Shown: positions 3,531-36,787 of the stretch, piece by piece | Position numbering within the stretch: the first letter of the stretch is position 1 | Layout: each line of letters starts with the position of its first letter | Assembly: GCA_041482195.1 (NCBI GenBank) | Contig: JBGPDH010000002.1 | Span: 1-41,895, forward strand | Direction: 5' to 3' | DNA: 41,895 bases | Source: Verrucomicrobiia bacterium | Lineage (GTDB): Bacteria; Verrucomicrobiota; Verrucomicrobiia; Limisphaerales; UBA11358 | Position numbers and translations under genes: made by a program | Notes under the pieces: model-generated | The model's database searches: none | What the model saw: only the letters and a program-made list of their open reading frames with translations | What the model was told of the DNA's origin: nothing

Positions 3531-3599
3531 TCCTCGTCTTTTCGTCCTCGACCGCGAAAAGTCGAATTCGATAACGAGAACGAGGAGGACGACGAGGAG
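3531..3599. repeat. CTC/GAG triplet-type imperfect inverted repeat (family F2, copy A) between the convergent TolC-like and CPBP genes
   Basis: The left arm is tcctcgtcttttcgtcctcg (3531-3550) and the right arm is cgagaacgaggaggacgacgaggag (3575-3599). The arms are complementary, with mismatches. The same word set (cgtcctcg / gaggacgag / cgagaacgag) recurs at 16743-16806. Confidence 0.7.
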
Positions 3600-5649: not shown

Positions 5650-6795
5650 CTAATTGCGCAAAATTCGACGCACCGCAGCCACCAGGGCAGCCGCCTCTGC
5701 CGGCGTACCAATCGTGATGCGCAGGTAGCTCTTAACCTCCGGGAAATTGAACCAGCGGACGAGGATTTTCTGCCCGCGCAACCGGTGTTGCCACTCGTGC
5801 GCAGGGAAACGCAATGGCTGAACGAGGGTGAAATTGGTCTGGCTCGGAAACGCCCGGAAGCCCGACCTGGTCAGCTCGCGGCTCAACCAGTCGCGCGTGG
5901 CGAGGATCTTTTTGAAATTGGCGCGGTAATATTTCAGGTCGTTCAAAGTGGCCACGGCACCAGCCTGGCCCAGGCCGTTCACGTTGTAACTGTCGCGGAT
6001 TTTATGCAGAGCGGCGATGAGGTCGTGGTGTCCGATAAAATAACCGATGCGCTGGAAGCAAAGCGAGTAGGCCTTGGAAAACGTACGGGCGACGAGTACG
6101 TGAGGGTATTTCAGAGCCAGCCTCATCGCGTTCTCTTTTGCAAAATCAACGTAAGCCTCGTCGAGAATGACCAGGCCCTGCTGTGCGCGACAAAGTTTTT
6201 CCAATTCGGACGTCTGGTAACCACGTCCGCTCGGCGCGTTCGGAGTCGTTACAAAAGTTAACGCGGCGTCGAATTTCCAAATCCCGGTGCGTTTCAGTTC
6301 GGCGACCGTCGGCAGGGAGAAATCCGGTTTGAGCGGCACCCCATTCTTCGCCGCGCCGTGAATATCAGCCAGTACCGGGTACAACGAATAACTCGGTGTG
6401 AAGTATTGAACAACTTCGGGGGGGCGAGCTCTGCAAGTCCCTGACTTTTTTTGAATTGGGACTCGTATAACGCGTCCCTCCGGAACCGGCTCCACAAAAC
6501 ACCGCGTCGCCAGCGCCAATAACTCATCCGAACCGTTGCCCACGATGATGTTATCCGCGTGACAGCCGTGCAGCTTTGCCAGTTTCTCACGCAGCAGCTG
6601 GGCCGTTGGACTGGGGTACAATCGCAGCCGCCCGTCCACAGCCGCCTGGATAGCCGTCAGCACCTTCGGTGATGGCGGATAAGGGTTCTCGTTCGTGTTG
6701 AGCTTGATGAGCCCCTTGATCTTCGGTTGCTCACCATAAACGTAAGGATGCAACTCGCGCACCAGCGGGCGAATCAATCGCTTCGGGCTCTTCAT
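5650..6795 (-). CDS. hisC: histidinol-phosphate aminotransferase
   Basis: 381 aa. It has the LNTNENPYPPSP substrate motif, the PLP-lysine region (RTFSKAYSL) and DEAYVDF. Its start overlaps the hisD stop (ATGA). It carries an extra ~21-aa segment; see the repeat at 6418-6481. Confidence 0.9.
   Translation of the reverse strand: MKSPKRLIRPLVRELHPYVYGEQPKIKGLIKLNTNENPYPPSPKVLTAIQAAVDGRLRLYPSPTAQLLREKLAKLHGCHADNIIVGNGSDELLALATRCFVEPVPEGRVIRVPIQKKSGTCRARPPEVVQYFTPSYSLYPVLADIHGAAKNGVPLKPDFSLPTVAELKRTGIWKFDAALTFVTTPNAPSGRGYQTSELEKLCRAQQGLVILDEAYVDFAKENAMRLALKYPHVLVARTFSKAYSLCFQRIGYFIGHHDLIAALHKIRDSYNVNGLGQAGAVATLNDLKYYRANFKKILATRDWLSRELTRSGFRAFPSQTNFTLVQPLRFPAHEWQHRLRGQKILVRWFNFPEVKSYLRITIGTPAEAAALVAAVRRILRN
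6418..6481 (-). repeat. ~64-68-bp palindromic element (family F1) inserted in-frame in hisC
   Basis: The coding-strand sequence is GGAGGGACGCGTTATACGAGTCCC-AATTCAAAAAAAGTC-AGGGACTTGCAGAGCTCGCCCCCCC. It is homologous to the two prmC copies and translates as EGRVIRVPIQKKSGTCRARPP, at a point where E. coli HisC (recalled from memory) has only ~4 residues. Confidence 0.85.
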
Positions 6796-11401: not shown

Positions 11402-11417
11402 GTTTGAAATTGAGTGA

Positions 11418-11490
11418 GTAGGTTGTAGTGGGGAGTCAGTAGAAAGACCAGACGAAACGCAACCACTACTGACCACTGGCTACAAGCTAC
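11418..11490. repeat. imperfect 25-bp-arm inverted repeat in the fabD-fabG spacer (family F4-like)
   Basis: The left arm is GTAGGTTGTAGTGGGGAGTCAGTAG (11418-11442). The reverse complement of the right arm is GTAGCTTGTAGCCAGTGGTCAGTAG (11466-11490). 19 of 25 positions are complementary, with the mismatches clustered centrally. The right arm abuts the fabD stop. Confidence 0.7.
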
Positions 11491-12419
11491 TAACTTGCCA
11501 ATGCCTTGGCAGTGGCTTCCAAACTCGCCACGTCCGCCACGTTCAACATCTGTACTTTTTTGTCAATCCGCTTCATAAAACCGCTCAACGCCGTGCCGGG
11601 ACCGAGTTCGATGAAGCACGTGAACTCCTGGGCCAGCAGCGTGCGCATCGATTGTTCCCAGAGCACCGGTGACGTGACCTGCTCGACCAATCGCTCCCGG
11701 ATGCCGCTCGGTCGGCCATGCGGCAGCGCGGTCACGTTTGAGATCACCGGCACATTCGGAGCTGCAAGGTTGATTTTCTCCAGTTCGGTTTGCAACTTTG
11801 GCCGGGCGCCGGCCATGAGGGGCGAATGATAAGCACCGGCGACGGGCAGCGGAATCGCGCGCTTGGCACCCCGGGCTTTGGCCAGATCAACGGCTTTGGT
11901 GATTTTGTCTGCTTCGCCTGAGATCACCAGCTGGCCCGGACAATTGAGGTTCGCCAAAACGACACCGGCTTCGGCGCAAACTTCACGTGTCGGCGCCACA
12001 TCCAGGCCGATGACCGCCGCCATGCCGCCGCGCGTGACGTCACAGGCTTCCTGCATAAATTGACCGCGCTGGCGCACCACCCGCAGGCCGTCCTCAAAAC
12101 TCATCGCCCCCGCAGCCGCGAGCGCCGTGAATTCACCGAGCGACAATCCGGCGGTCGCCTCAAATTTCAAATCAGGCACTTGTTCCTTGAGCAGCTCAAA
12201 CGCAATCCAACTGGCGAGAAAAATACCCGGTTGCGCGTTCCCGGTTTTGGTCAGTTCCGGTTCCGGCCCGTTAAAGCAAATACCAGCAAGGTCATAACCC
12301 AGGACGGTGTTGGCGCGGTCGAACCACGCTCGGGCGGAGGGAAATTTTTCCGCAAGGTCCCTGCCCATGCCGACAACCTGCGCGCCCTGTCCGGCAAAGA
12401 GAAGTGCGGTTTTGCTCAT
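11490..12419 (-). CDS. fabD: malonyl-CoA:ACP transacylase
   Basis: 309 aa. It has the FAGQGAQ N-terminus, the active-site nucleophile motif GLSLGEF (GxSxG) and AGAYHSPLM. Confidence 0.92.
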   Translation of the reverse strand: MSKTALLFAGQGAQVVGMGRDLAEKFPSARAWFDRANTVLGYDLAGICFNGPEPELTKTGNAQPGIFLASWIAFELLKEQVPDLKFEATAGLSLGEFTALAAAGAMSFEDGLRVVRQRGQFMQEACDVTRGGMAAVIGLDVAPTREVCAEAGVVLANLNCPGQLVISGEADKITKAVDLAKARGAKRAIPLPVAGAYHSPLMAGARPKLQTELEKINLAAPNVPVISNVTALPHGRPSGIRERLVEQVTSPVLWEQSMRTLLAQEFTCFIELGPGTALSGFMKRIDKKVQMLNVADVASLEATAKALAS

Positions 12420-15779: not shown

Positions 15780-16778
15780 GTGACCGTCCTCGAAGCGATT
15801 CAGAAAAGCACGGAATTTCTGGCCAAAAAAGGCTGCGAATCGCCGCGCCTGCAGACCGAATGGCTGTTGGCACATCTCCTCCAAATGCCGCGCATGAAGT
15901 TGTATCTGAACTTTGAACGCGGGCTGACCGTGGCGGAGACGGACGCGTTGCGTGAACTCGTCAAACGCCGCGGCCAACATGAACCCCTGCAACACCTTAC
16001 CGGTTCAACTTCGTTTTGCGGACTGGAAATTCTCGTGAACCGTCATGCCCTGGTGCCGCGACCGGAAACAGAATTGCTCGCCGAAGAAGGCTGGCAATTC
16101 CTGAATGGTCTATCGGCGGGGCGAGTTACACGAGTTCCTGAAATCCAAAGAGGAGTTGGAGACTCGCAGAGCTCGCCCCTCCGGGTGTTGGACCTCGGCA
16201 CCGGCACCGGGTGCATCGCCATTGCCCTGGCGGTCAAATGTCCCGACACGAAAATTATAGCTACCGACCTCTCGTCGGACGCACTGGCACTGGCCAGGGA
16301 AAACGCGGCACGCCATGGGGTTGCCGGGCGCATTCAGTTCTTACAGGGTGACGGCTTTGCCGCACTTGAATCGGAAGGACGAGTTACACGAGTCCCGGAA
16401 TCAAACCTGGACATTGGGGACTCGCTGAGTTCGTCCCTCCGAAAATATGATCTGATTGTCAGCAATCCACCCTACATTCCGTCCGTTGAAATCAACTCAT
16501 TGCAACCGGAAGTGCGGGATTTTGACCCGCACGCCGCACTGGACGGCGGGGCGGATGGTCTCAATTTTTATCGGATGTTTTCGTCACAGGCGCAATCGTT
16601 TTTAAAGCCGGGTGGCAAGCTCATGCTGGAATTCGGCGACGGCCAGGCGGAAGCCATCCGACGGATTTTTGAGACGGAAAAGTGGATTGTCGAAGCCATG
16701 AAGGAAGACTACTCTCACCGCGCCAGAATCCTGATCGCCAAATCGTCCTCGTCATCGTCCTCGTCATCGGAAGATTGA
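15780..16778 (+). CDS. prmC: peptide chain release factor N5-glutamine methyltransferase
   Basis: 332 aa with a GTG start. It has the SAM motif VLDLGTGTGCIAIALA and the catalytic motif IVSNPPYIP. It contains two 23-aa in-frame inserts (F1 repeats) and a poly-Ser C-terminal tail encoded by an F2 repeat arm. Confidence 0.9.
   Translation: MTVLEAIQKSTEFLAKKGCESPRLQTEWLLAHLLQMPRMKLYLNFERGLTVAETDALRELVKRRGQHEPLQHLTGSTSFCGLEILVNRHALVPRPETELLAEEGWQFLNGLSAGRVTRVPEIQRGVGDSQSSPLRVLDLGTGTGCIAIALAVKCPDTKIIATDLSSDALALARENAARHGVAGRIQFLQGDGFAALESEGRVTRVPESNLDIGDSLSSSLRKYDLIVSNPPYIPSVEINSLQPEVRDFDPHAALDGGADGLNFYRMFSSQAQSFLKPGGKLMLEFGDGQAEAIRRIFETEKWIVEAMKEDYSHRARILIAKSSSSSSSSSED
16115..16182 (+). repeat. 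68-bp palindromic element (family F1), in-frame copy 1 in prmC
   Basis: The sequence is GGCGGGGCGAGTTACACGAGTTCC-TGAAATCCAAAGAGGAGTT-GGAGACTCGCAGAGCTCGCCCCTCC. The terminal arms GGGGCGAG / CTCGCCCC and CGAGT / ACTCG are complementary. It translates as SAGRVTRVPEIQRGVGDSQSSPL, immediately before the LDLGTG SAM motif. Confidence 0.88.
16373..16440 (+). repeat. 68-bp palindromic element (family F1), in-frame copy 2 in prmC
   Basis: The sequence is GGAAGGACGAGTTACACGAGTCCC-GGAATCAAACCTGGACATT-GGGGACTCGCTGAGTTCGTCCCTCC. It translates as EGRVTRVPESNLDIGDSLSSSLR, immediately before the NPPY block. The arm changes relative to copy 1 (GGGGCGAG/CTCGCCCC versus GGACGA/TCGTCC) are compensatory. Confidence 0.88.
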
Positions 16779-16806
16779 AACCGAGGAGGAGGAGGACGAG
16801 AACGAG
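16743..16806. repeat. CTC/GAG triplet-type imperfect inverted repeat (family F2, copy B) spanning the prmC stop and murA leader
   Basis: The left arm is tcgtcctcgtcatcgtcctcgtcatcgg (16743-16770), the loop is aagattgaaa, and the right arm is ccgaggaggaggaggacgagaacgag (16781-16806). The pairing has a mismatch at roughly every third position. The left arm encodes the SSSSSSSSSSED tail of PrmC. Confidence 0.7.
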
Positions 16807-18143: not shown

Positions 18144-18218
18144 CTGGACTGCGGCAGTCCCCTGCCGCTTTCCAACGCGTCGTGATTTCCAAAAGCGGCG
18201 GAGGACCGCCGCAGTCCA
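18144..18218. repeat. inverted pair of GGACTGCGGC...GCCGCTTT hairpin units (family F3, arrangement U-U')
   Basis: The units are TGGACTGCGGCAGTCCCCTGCCGCTTT (18144-18170) and AAAGCGGCGGAGGACCGCCGCAGTCCA (18192-18218). 23 of 27 positions are complementary. Each unit is also a hairpin on its own (GCGGCAG/CTGCCGC and GCGGCGG/CCGCCGC). Confidence 0.8.
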
Positions 18219-18354: not shown

Positions 18355-18443
18355 CCACAAAATAAAAGAGCGCGACGGGCGGCCGTTGACACGGGTGTCC
18401 CGCATTGCGGGATTCACACCGGTGTCAACGGCTGCCCGCGCGC
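18355..18443 (-). terminator. long GC-rich hairpin plus U-tract: intrinsic terminator of the 112-aa minus-strand gene
   Basis: The arms are GCCGTTGACACGGGTGT (18382-18398) and ACACCGGTGTCAACGGC (18416-18432), with 16 of 17 positions paired. An extension pairs 18370-18381 with 18433-18443. The loop contains an inner hairpin, CCCGC-att-GCGGG. On the minus strand the stem is followed by TCTTTTATTTTGTGG. Confidence 0.6.
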
Positions 18444-36690: not shown

Positions 36691-36787
36691 AGCGGTGCTA
36701 AAGTCACCGCAGTCCAGACGCTACGCGACTGCCGGACCTGGGCGAACCACGCGAAGCGTTTGGACTGCGGCGGTTGACCGCCGCTTT
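36691..36787. repeat. inverted pair of family-F3 hairpin units in the permuted arrangement (U'-U), forming a ~97-nt extended hairpin
   Basis: The units are AGCGGTGCTAAAGTCACCGCAGTCCA (36691-36716) and TGGACTGCGGCGGTTGACCGCCGCTTT (36761-36787). The stem continues through GACGCT / AGCGTT. It uses the same GGACTGCGGCGG / CCGCCGCTTT words as 18144-18218. Confidence 0.8.

Follow-up and report, generated by a model that had tools for sequence, protein, structure and literature searches.

A probable REPIN family of Limisphaerales with copies read in frame within hisC and prmC

The palindromic element of hisC and its two relatives in prmC

The DNA analysed here (hereafter the window) is a stretch of 41,895 nt from a Verrucomicrobiia bacterium of the order Limisphaerales (GenBank assembly GCA_041482195.1, contig JBGPDH010000002.1, positions 1 to 41,895). 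Its hisC gene contains, in frame, a 70-nt imperfect palindrome (copy C), and two further copies of the same element (copies A and B) lie within prmC (Table 1). The hisC segment is very likely a REPIN, i.e. a doublet of repetitive extragenic palindromic (REP) sequences forming a hairpin, which belongs to a Limisphaerales family and is the cognate repeat of a RAYT (REP-associated tyrosine transposase, of the HUH/Y1 type).

Among the matches listed, 120 homologs of the hisC product, mostly from Verrucomicrobiota metagenome-assembled genomes (MAGs), share 79-97% identity with it, and all carry PF00155 and the name histidinol-phosphate aminotransferase. Homologs of the prmC product bear the name peptide chain release factor N(5)-glutamine methyltransferase. 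The reading frames of hisC and prmC are open, and all the listed homologs of both (240/240) span the full length and keep the insert region in frame. As judged from these frames, the element is predicted to be read through into both the HisC and the PrmC products.

The 381-aa hisC product reads ...CFVEP-VPEGRVIRVPIQKKSGTCRARPPE-VVQYFTPSYSLY... (the part following VPEGRVIRVPIQKKSGTCRARPPE is also given as VVQYFTPSYSLYP), and the minus strand between positions 6300 and 6600 of the window contains ...TGTTTTGTGGAGCCGGTTCCGGAGGGACGCGTTATACGAGTCCCAATTCAAAAAAAGTCAGGGACTTGCAGAGCTCGCCCCCCCGAAGTTGTTCAATACTTC.... The best structural match to this product is a solved HisC (PDB 3HDO, E=2e-64). In this alignment, query residues 102-125 are unmatched and the chain passes from residue 103 to residue 106, so that the insert represents about 22 residues beyond a normal HisC. 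This fits the short loop that an earlier, sequence-only reading of the window had given for E. coli HisC. The hisC sequence reported by that reading is indeed present on the minus strand, in frame, and the A7 run that it noticed in the loop falls within the spacer. The extent that it proposed (6418-6481) was right as to the place and a little too short, since the palindrome covers 6415-6484.

The three copies of the window align over about 70 nt, with both arms conserved, and all of them form a long hairpin on either strand (z of -4.3 to -6.5 versus dinucleotide shuffles). For copy C, the folding energy is -27.1 kcal/mol on the coding strand (z -4.4) and -33.9 kcal/mol on the other strand (z -4.3). 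A gapped pattern derived from the arms matches the window exactly three times (once in hisC and twice in prmC) versus 0.00 matches expected from shuffles, which bears out the earlier proposal of one repeated element with three translated copies. No fourth copy was found in the window when up to 5 mismatches were allowed per arm. The additional claim that all three copies share one reading frame holds for the left arm (GRV[TI]RVP) and fails for the right arm, which reads GTCRARPP in hisC and GDSQSSPL and GDSLSSSL in prmC because the spacer lengths differ by a number that is not a multiple of three.

Table 1. Host genes, element copies and RAYT genes (positions in the window, or in the fetched locus where its label is given)
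Feature	Position	Strand	Description
hisC (histidinol-phosphate aminotransferase), 381 aa	5650..6795	-	Open reading frame (ORF); host gene of the element
Copy C, probable REPIN (REP doublet forming hairpin)	6415..6484	-	Predicted translation PEGRVIRVPIQKKSGTCRARPPE; arms with 2-3 mismatches to the 24-nt family consensus
Left REP arm of copy C, CCGGAGGGACGCGTTATACGAGTCCC	6458..6483	-	Itself a small GGGAC...GTCCC palindrome
Variable spacer (hairpin loop) of copy C, AATTCAAAAAAAGTCA	6442..6457	-	16 nt; A7 run at 6446-6452
Right REP arm of copy C, GGGACTTGCAGAGCTCGCCCCCCCGA	6416..6441	-	
prmC (release-factor glutamine methyltransferase), 332 aa	15780..16778	+	ORF; homologs carry PF17827/PF05175
Copy A, probable REPIN	16113..16184	+	Predicted translation SAGRVTRVPEIQRGVGDSQSSPLR; directly before the GTGTG S-adenosylmethionine-binding motif; -39.9 kcal/mol, z -5.0
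Copy B, probable REPIN	16371..16442	+	Predicted translation SEGRVTRVPESNLDIGDSLSSSLR; directly before the NPPY motif strand; -36.9 kcal/mol, z -4.9
RAYT ORF	L105:2225-2731	-	74 bits (E=1.1e-20) to NCBIfam NF047646 (REP-associated tyrosine transposase)
Second RAYT	L037:4611-5432		89 bits to NF047646; both flanks are a different hairpin family, GGAGCGCGGGCGGCTCGCCCGCG...CGCGGGCGGGCCGCCCGCGCTCC

A dispersed repeat family flanking a RAYT gene

Copy C is a member of a dispersed repeat family. A scan with the exact pattern, in which each species was represented by one genome and copy totals are lower bounds, recovered at least 118 copies, almost all of them in Verrucomicrobiota/Verrucomicrobiae/Limisphaerales MAGs from peat and soil. 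There are at least 7-8 strict-pattern copies per genome among the matches listed. The hisC-centred metagenome loci (370 kb) held only the hisC copy itself, so that they give no informative estimate of density. A position profile of 121 copies yields the consensus (T)TCGGAGGGACGAG-TTACA-CGAGTCCC, a spacer of 10-30 nt and GGGACTCG-CRKAG-CTCGTCCCTCCGA(A). Most arm positions in this profile are at least 90% conserved, the spacer being variable, and the ends of the element are sharp: information content is at background within 1-2 bases outside the consensus ends. Each 26-nt arm holds its own mini-palindrome, a GGGAC(N11)GTCCC stem. The two arms are mutually inverted, and a conserved internal mismatch of 3-5 nt (TTACA versus CRKAG) gives the element a polarity. 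Solo arms also exist, for instance beside the RAYT gene of locus L105 described below.

A target-site duplication, which the sequence-only reading had proposed to look for through ortholog comparison, was recovered neither in this way nor by a scan of the boundaries: no duplication of at least 4 nt appeared, whatever the boundary definition tested. A direct-repeat signal of 2-3 nt is weak and inseparable from the T-rich/A-rich palindromic flanks. Target-site duplications are not expected under IS200/RAYT-type chemistry. Rfam gave no family match, either for the whole window at the gathering thresholds or for the local region at E<=10, where the best match was a chance one to mir-969 (E=0.27). 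Furthermore, a literature search found no published description of this repeat family or of Limisphaerales REPINs.

Several contigs (L009, L039, L052, L060, L082, L089, L091, L096 and L113) carry the verrucomicrobial repeat yet belong to MAGs with other labels (Sulfopaludibacter, Bifidobacteriaceae, Limnocylindrales, Acidoferrum, Sulfotelmatobacter and Aquilonibacter). These foreign labels probably result from mis-binning, and the repeat could serve as a lineage marker. One of these contigs also carries an unusual copy (L060:1452-1531), in which the left-arm GAGTTACAC segment is tandemly duplicated (GGGACGAGTTACACGAGTTACACGAGTCCC) and read as GRVTRVTRVP.

RAYT and IS200 TnpA seeds were searched against all six-frame ORFs of the fetched loci and of the window, and the hits of the RAYT seed were then verified independently with NCBIfam and the PDB. 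The RAYT seed had two matches in the fetched loci (L105 and L037) and the IS200 TnpA seed had none in them. The L105 protein matches the solved E. coli TnpArep (PDB 4ER8, E=1.5e-7), with which both its HUH motif (MPDHLHFF) and its tyrosine motif (YVLENPVKA) align. Its gene is flanked by two full copies of the element in inverted orientation (2141-2218 on the plus strand and 2719-2797 on the minus strand) and by a solo left arm (2107-2133). The homologs of this RAYT are 60-82% identical to it and about 163 aa long, many being named RayT by JGI. They occur in four further contexts (L203-L205, L206, L207 and L208), with family arms on both flanks (0-5 mismatches per 24 nt). In 1.3 Mb of loci, no insertion sequence (IS) sharing these ends was encountered.

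The gene order aroC (chorismate synthase)-RAYT-trpA (tryptophan synthase alpha) is found in L105 and in L203-L207, where the RAYT gene lies at 2001-2492. The RAYT of L208 has a different gene context, not aroC/trpA. The aroC-trpA slot fits a single-copy, vertically inherited RAYT, and RAYTs have been described as single-copy, fixed in position and vertically inherited (10.1101/2021.07.10.451892).

Location, orientation and reading frame of the copies

To count distinct sites, orthologous copies were merged by flank similarity, which reduced the 121 copies to about 78 sites. Genes were called with our own codon-usage caller (greedy, non-overlapping; 81-85% of the sequence covered) and the calls were checked against Pfam, which confirmed 28 of 30 representative host ORFs. 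The sample is pattern-biased and the gene calls are home-made; the frame and location figures are indicative only. Seventy copies (about 37 distinct sites) are intragenic and 40 (34 sites) are intergenic, while nine (6 sites) overlap a gene end and two (1 site) lie upstream of the first start codon. The elements are under-represented in genes, with 47% of the sites versus a coding fraction of about 81% (p=3e-11). The Pfam-checked hosts include TsaB-like, NUDIX/HAD, TlyA-like, PrmA, NadC, several aminotransferases and PurM-like proteins, as well as ArgRS (two sites), ValRS, LigA, IspG, LpxB, Lnt, KsgA and CinA.

The orientation of the intragenic copies is modestly biased towards sense (about 26 sites versus 11 antisense). 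Sense0, translated as EGRVTRVP, is the frame used at 15 sites, followed by antisense1 (...GTRVTRPSE) at 10, sense2 (RRDELHES) at 9, sense1 (GGTSYTSP) at 2 and antisense2 at 1, antisense0 being used at none. The latter is the only frame with a stop in the consensus, a TAA that arises from the TTACA internal loop. The fraction of open frames, estimated from intergenic copies, is 0.56 for sense0, 0.38 for sense1, 0.79 for sense2, 0.76 for antisense1, 0.74 for antisense2 and 0 for antisense0. A model based on stop codons departs from the frames observed (chi-square 19.5, df 4, p about 6e-4, with small numbers and our own gene calls). Moreover, spacer length modulo 3 does not separate intragenic from intergenic copies; therefore, the frame is not preserved by one fixed element length.

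These figures change the picture drawn from the window by the sequence-only reading. It had seen all copies as intragenic, sense and in one frame, and had put the coincidence of frames at about 1 in 36. As a property of the family this does not stand: the sites are split between genes and intergenic regions, and the intragenic copies lie in either orientation and in all frames but one, so that the 1 in 36 reflects a sample of three. Finally, its suggestion that stop codons explain the frame bias holds for antisense0, which is never used, and for sense1, which is lowered by spacer-borne stops, but stops leave the surplus at sense0 and the shortfall at antisense2 unexplained.

Alleles of the three sites in orthologs

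Filled, empty and differently filled alleles occur in orthologs at all three sites, so that, as had been proposed, the segment is not an ordinary variable loop. The HisC site lies between FVEP and VQYFTPSYSLYP, where homologs vary in length. It is occupied by the element, by a diverged form of it (EGGVPRRP...) or by at least 10 other palindromes, most of them strongly hairpin-forming (z -4 to -10). Many of these begin with GTAG and end with CTAC, the classical REP tag, as for instance GTAGGACAGGC-TTCCA-GCCTGTCTC...GAGACAGGC-AAGAT-GCCTGTCCTAC. Alleles that form no hairpin are 33-39 nt long and encode KPNPKLAEATV or SPKSKVQSPKSLV, the latter being an (AGTCCAA)n heptamer repeat. In L168, L163, L154, L185 and L144, the short allele is an in-frame (AGTCCAA)4-5 translated as SPKSKVQSPKS.

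In the hisC genes of L130, L176, L138, L173 and L174, the right arm complements the left one exactly (TTACA/TGTAA or TTCCA/TGGAA) and the conserved mismatch is lost; such perfect palindromes suggest hairpin-templated correction or conversion between arms. In L151, the hisC site is filled by GGAGCGCGGGC...GCCCGCGCTCC, the repeat that flanks the RAYT of L037 on both sides. Therefore, at least two RAYT-linked families of probable REPINs occupy one and the same hisC position in different lineages.

Likewise, site 1 of PrmC carries the element, STLNPQPS (encoded by (TCAACCC)3 in L199:1118-2056) or other palindromes. At site 2, the alternatives to the element are other palindromes and a loop of five residues, PVDAR or PVEVS (L200 and L201). 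The insertion junction of prmC is unreadable from these alleles, the filled and empty genomes being only about 73-77% identical in PrmC, with different loop residues.

Age and constraint of the hisC insertion

The hairpin-bearing hisC copies (22 distinct sequences) have a recognisable common spacer (AAATCAAAAGAAGTCA and variants) and therefore descend from one old insertion that has been vertically inherited. The insert is kept across HisC orthologs down to about 76% identity. Among these copies, the pairwise identity is 0.84 over the 52 nt of the arms, 0.88 at codon positions 1+2 of the flanks and 0.65 at their position 3. The third codon positions of the arms (0.83-0.85) are as conserved as the first and second ones, so that the arms lack codon periodicity, whereas the spacer has a normal coding pattern (0.89, 0.73 and 0.55 at positions 1, 2 and 3). 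What has been constrained or homogenised in the arms is hence the nucleic acid, not the peptide.

Selection at the RNA level was sought as an asymmetry between G.U and A.C at the non-Watson-Crick positions of the stem, and this comparison gave no signal: on the element strand, the mismatches are 30 GT versus 35 AC for sense copies and 19 GT versus 12 AC for antisense copies. Since A.C is as frequent as G.T on the mRNA strand, nothing favours an RNA-level over a DNA-level cause.

Origin of the hisC element

Since a RAYT gene is flanked by the element in related genomes and the boundary scan revealed no target-site duplication of at least 4 nt, we favour a REPIN of a RAYT system over a miniature inverted-repeat transposable element (MITE). 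Under the mechanism that we infer, a copy would have entered hisC in an ancestor, between the end of the FVEP helix and the VQYFTPSYSLYP strand. The substrate of RAYTs is presumed to be a single-stranded hairpin. This copy would have survived, being stop-free in the frame concerned and adding a multiple of three bases, and HisC would simply have gained a loop of about 22 residues, probably exposed at the surface and neutral for the enzyme. The copy would since have been passed down vertically, as the spacer common to orthologs suggests. The idea underlying the sequence-only reading, a mobile palindrome tolerated in frame, was right.

A MITE would be a deletion derivative of an IS encoding a DDE transposase, mobilised in trans via its terminal inverted repeats. 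A short non-coding palindrome with 26-nt inverted ends, a variable middle and many dispersed copies could answer to this description, but the lack of any target-site duplication of at least 4 nt at the boundaries tested makes such an origin very unlikely, as does the fact that the only transposase-like genes beside copies are RAYTs, with arms on both flanks in five genome contexts. In addition, the arms resemble REPs in being small palindromes themselves and in occurring singly. It is also very unlikely that the hairpin has been kept in hisC and prmC for a role in the mRNA, such as pausing translation, blocking RNases or serving as a regulatory stem-loop. The intragenic copies lie in both orientations, nearly half of the sites are intergenic, the non-Watson-Crick stem positions show no G.U preference on the mRNA strand, Rfam has no match and unrelated palindromes sit at the same position in orthologs. 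These facts outweigh the very stable predicted RNA hairpins (-27 to -60 kcal/mol) and the conservation of third codon positions in the arms well above the flanking synonymous level, which such a role would explain.

Selection of the insert as a peptide, i.e. as a functional loop recruited by the enzymes, would agree with the over-representation of the sense0 frame (EGRVTRVP) among intragenic sites and with the maintenance of the insert in HisC orthologs down to about 76% identity. Nevertheless, unrelated enzymes translate this same DNA in either orientation and in five different frames, its arms have no codon periodicity, and orthologs exchange the insert for an unrelated sequence or a short loop while the remaining protein stays about 80% identical; we consider this explanation extremely unlikely. 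As for an ordinary hypervariable surface loop with a chance likeness to the prmC segments, the variable length of this position in all HisC homologs is its one argument, and we discard it in view of the three matches versus 0.00 in shuffles, of the at least 118 further copies elsewhere and of the strong inverted symmetry.

Several observations weigh against the assignment to a RAYT-linked REPIN family. The six-frame ORF search with the RAYT seed detected no RAYT gene in the 42-kb window, and the score of the L105 RAYT (74 bits) is just under the curated NF047646 cut-off of 80. Neither GTAG nor CGTC terminates the element, whose consensus begins and finishes as (T)TCGG...CCGA(A), CGTC being confined to the stem. 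About 47% of the distinct sampled sites are intragenic, versus REPINs described as almost exclusively extragenic. No clean empty site from a close relative was found among the HisC and PrmC orthologs compared. Lastly, an AlphaFold2 model of HisC (61 close homologs) was too poor to be used, with a mean pLDDT (predicted local distance difference test) of 60 and values below 50 in the insert region.

Some loops of Limisphaerales housekeeping enzymes might even be long-lived nests of REPINs, in which the families of different RAYTs replace one another at the same codon position. We put this forward tentatively, as a proposal more doubtful than the REPIN assignment itself. Three such positions are documented (one in HisC and two in PrmC) and at least 2 of the at least 10 palindrome families found at the hisC site are flanking a RAYT elsewhere. 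If this were the case, either RAYTs may be drawn to hairpins already in place or to a common site, or the hairpin DNA within genes may play a part at the level of the host. Either way, the elements would not be inert passengers.

Other repeats in the window

The window contains other inverted repeats. A different hairpin repeat, with 27-nt arms that are 89% complementary, is found at 18145-18218 and 36707-36787 (TGGACTGCGGC...GCCGCTTT and AAAGCGGC...GCCGCAGTCCA). The first copy is apparently intergenic, after murA, the related copy being about 18.5 kb away, and the pair probably represents another REP-like family. A gene boundary at 11413-11495 bears an inverted repeat of 30 nt with abundant GTAG/CTAC (AGTGAGTAGGTTGTAGTGGGGAGTCAGTAG / CTACTGACCACTGGCTACAAGCTACTAACT), possibly a REP dimer of the GTAG type. 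Positions 18376-18438 contain a further inverted repeat, of 23 nt, whose arms (CGGGCGGCCGTTGACACGGGTGT / ACACCGGTGTCAACGGCTGCCCG) are 91% complementary and separated by 17 nt. Finally, the C-terminus of PrmC is a poly-Ser/Glu/Asp tail (SSSSSSSSSSED) encoded at 16743-16806, at the end of prmC and the start of the murA region. The GAG/GAC-rich DNA of this segment is similar to positions 3570-3599 and makes up an inverted repeat together with DNA rich in TCGTC.

Significance and comparison with known systems

The family described here is probably a previously undescribed REPIN family, together with its RAYT, in uncultured bacteria that are abundant in soil and peat. Roughly half of the sampled sites are within essential genes (among them HisC, PrmC, PrmA, KsgA, ArgRS, ValRS, LigA, IspG, LpxB and Lnt). 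Peptides that recur in predicted proteins, such as EGRVTRVP, RRDELHES and GTRVTRPSE, would be translated selfish DNA and not protein motifs. Moreover, the same loops filled by different REPIN families in different lineages can be viewed as a natural experiment, both on how hairpin repeats choose and keep their sites and on how enzymes tolerate inserts of 20-30 residues.

The REPIN-RAYT systems of Pseudomonas fluorescens and E. coli have reportedly been worked out by Bertels and Rainey, Nunvar, and Ton-Hoang. The present element resembles them in its two inverted palindromic REP units, less conserved spacer and many copies dispersed over the MAGs, and also in the repeat-flanked RAYT with HUH and tyrosine motifs, the recurrent aroC-trpA position of this gene (L105 and L203-L207) and the lack of target-site duplication. 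It differs from them in its host phylum (Verrucomicrobiota), in its arms, which end with TCGG...CCGA and not with GTAG, and in the presence of about half of the sampled sites inside protein-coding genes, where they are translated. According to Bertels and Rainey, whose definitions of REPINs and RAYTs are used here, REPINs are almost exclusively extragenic (10.1101/2021.07.10.451892). The element thus has the structure and the RAYT association of a REPIN and departs from the extragenic location; from our indicative figures, the family is far more intragenic than this description.

Bacterial MITEs (Correia/NEMIS, Nezha, RUP and ERIC) are likewise small, non-autonomous, hairpin-forming, dispersed and occasionally in frame in ORFs. 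However, MITEs possess target-site duplications and terminal inverted repeats derived from an IS, and neither was found here. The resemblance to Rickettsia palindromic elements (Ogata et al. 2000, 2002, as cited in PMC3733652) is functional only, through in-frame palindromes. As far as they are presented in that source, these elements are also palindromes in frame in housekeeping genes, read through in genes that stay functional, with old and vertically inherited copies. In the same account, they are 100-150 bp long or CGTC-tagged, belong to an obligate intracellular alphaproteobacterium and have no dedicated transposase, whereas a cognate RAYT is probable here.

The closest precedent comes from the same phylum. 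Di Nocera, De Gregorio and Rocco (2013) described REPs lying wholly within ORFs of known proteins, with the highest count in Opitutus terrae (PMC3733652). Their intragenic REP dimers encode 20-30 aa, sometimes with two per ORF, in hosts that include DNA ligase and tRNA synthetases, and these authors linked intragenic REPs to the Rickettsia palindromic elements (PMC3733652). As in Limisphaerales, singles or dimers are thus found in enzyme ORFs, and DNA ligase and tRNA synthetases are hosts in both cases. The REPs of O. terrae are GTAG-tagged, whereas the elements of Limisphaerales, another order, lack the GTAG tag and form a different family. That work contains neither family turnover at one codon position in orthologs (the only such remark concerns Xanthomonas recB) nor third-position conservation of the arms. 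Translated selfish DNA inside a coding gene is therefore of a known though uncommon kind, and what is noteworthy in the present family is its high intragenic share, the recurrent use of three loop positions and the conservation of its arms at the nucleotide level within coding sequence.

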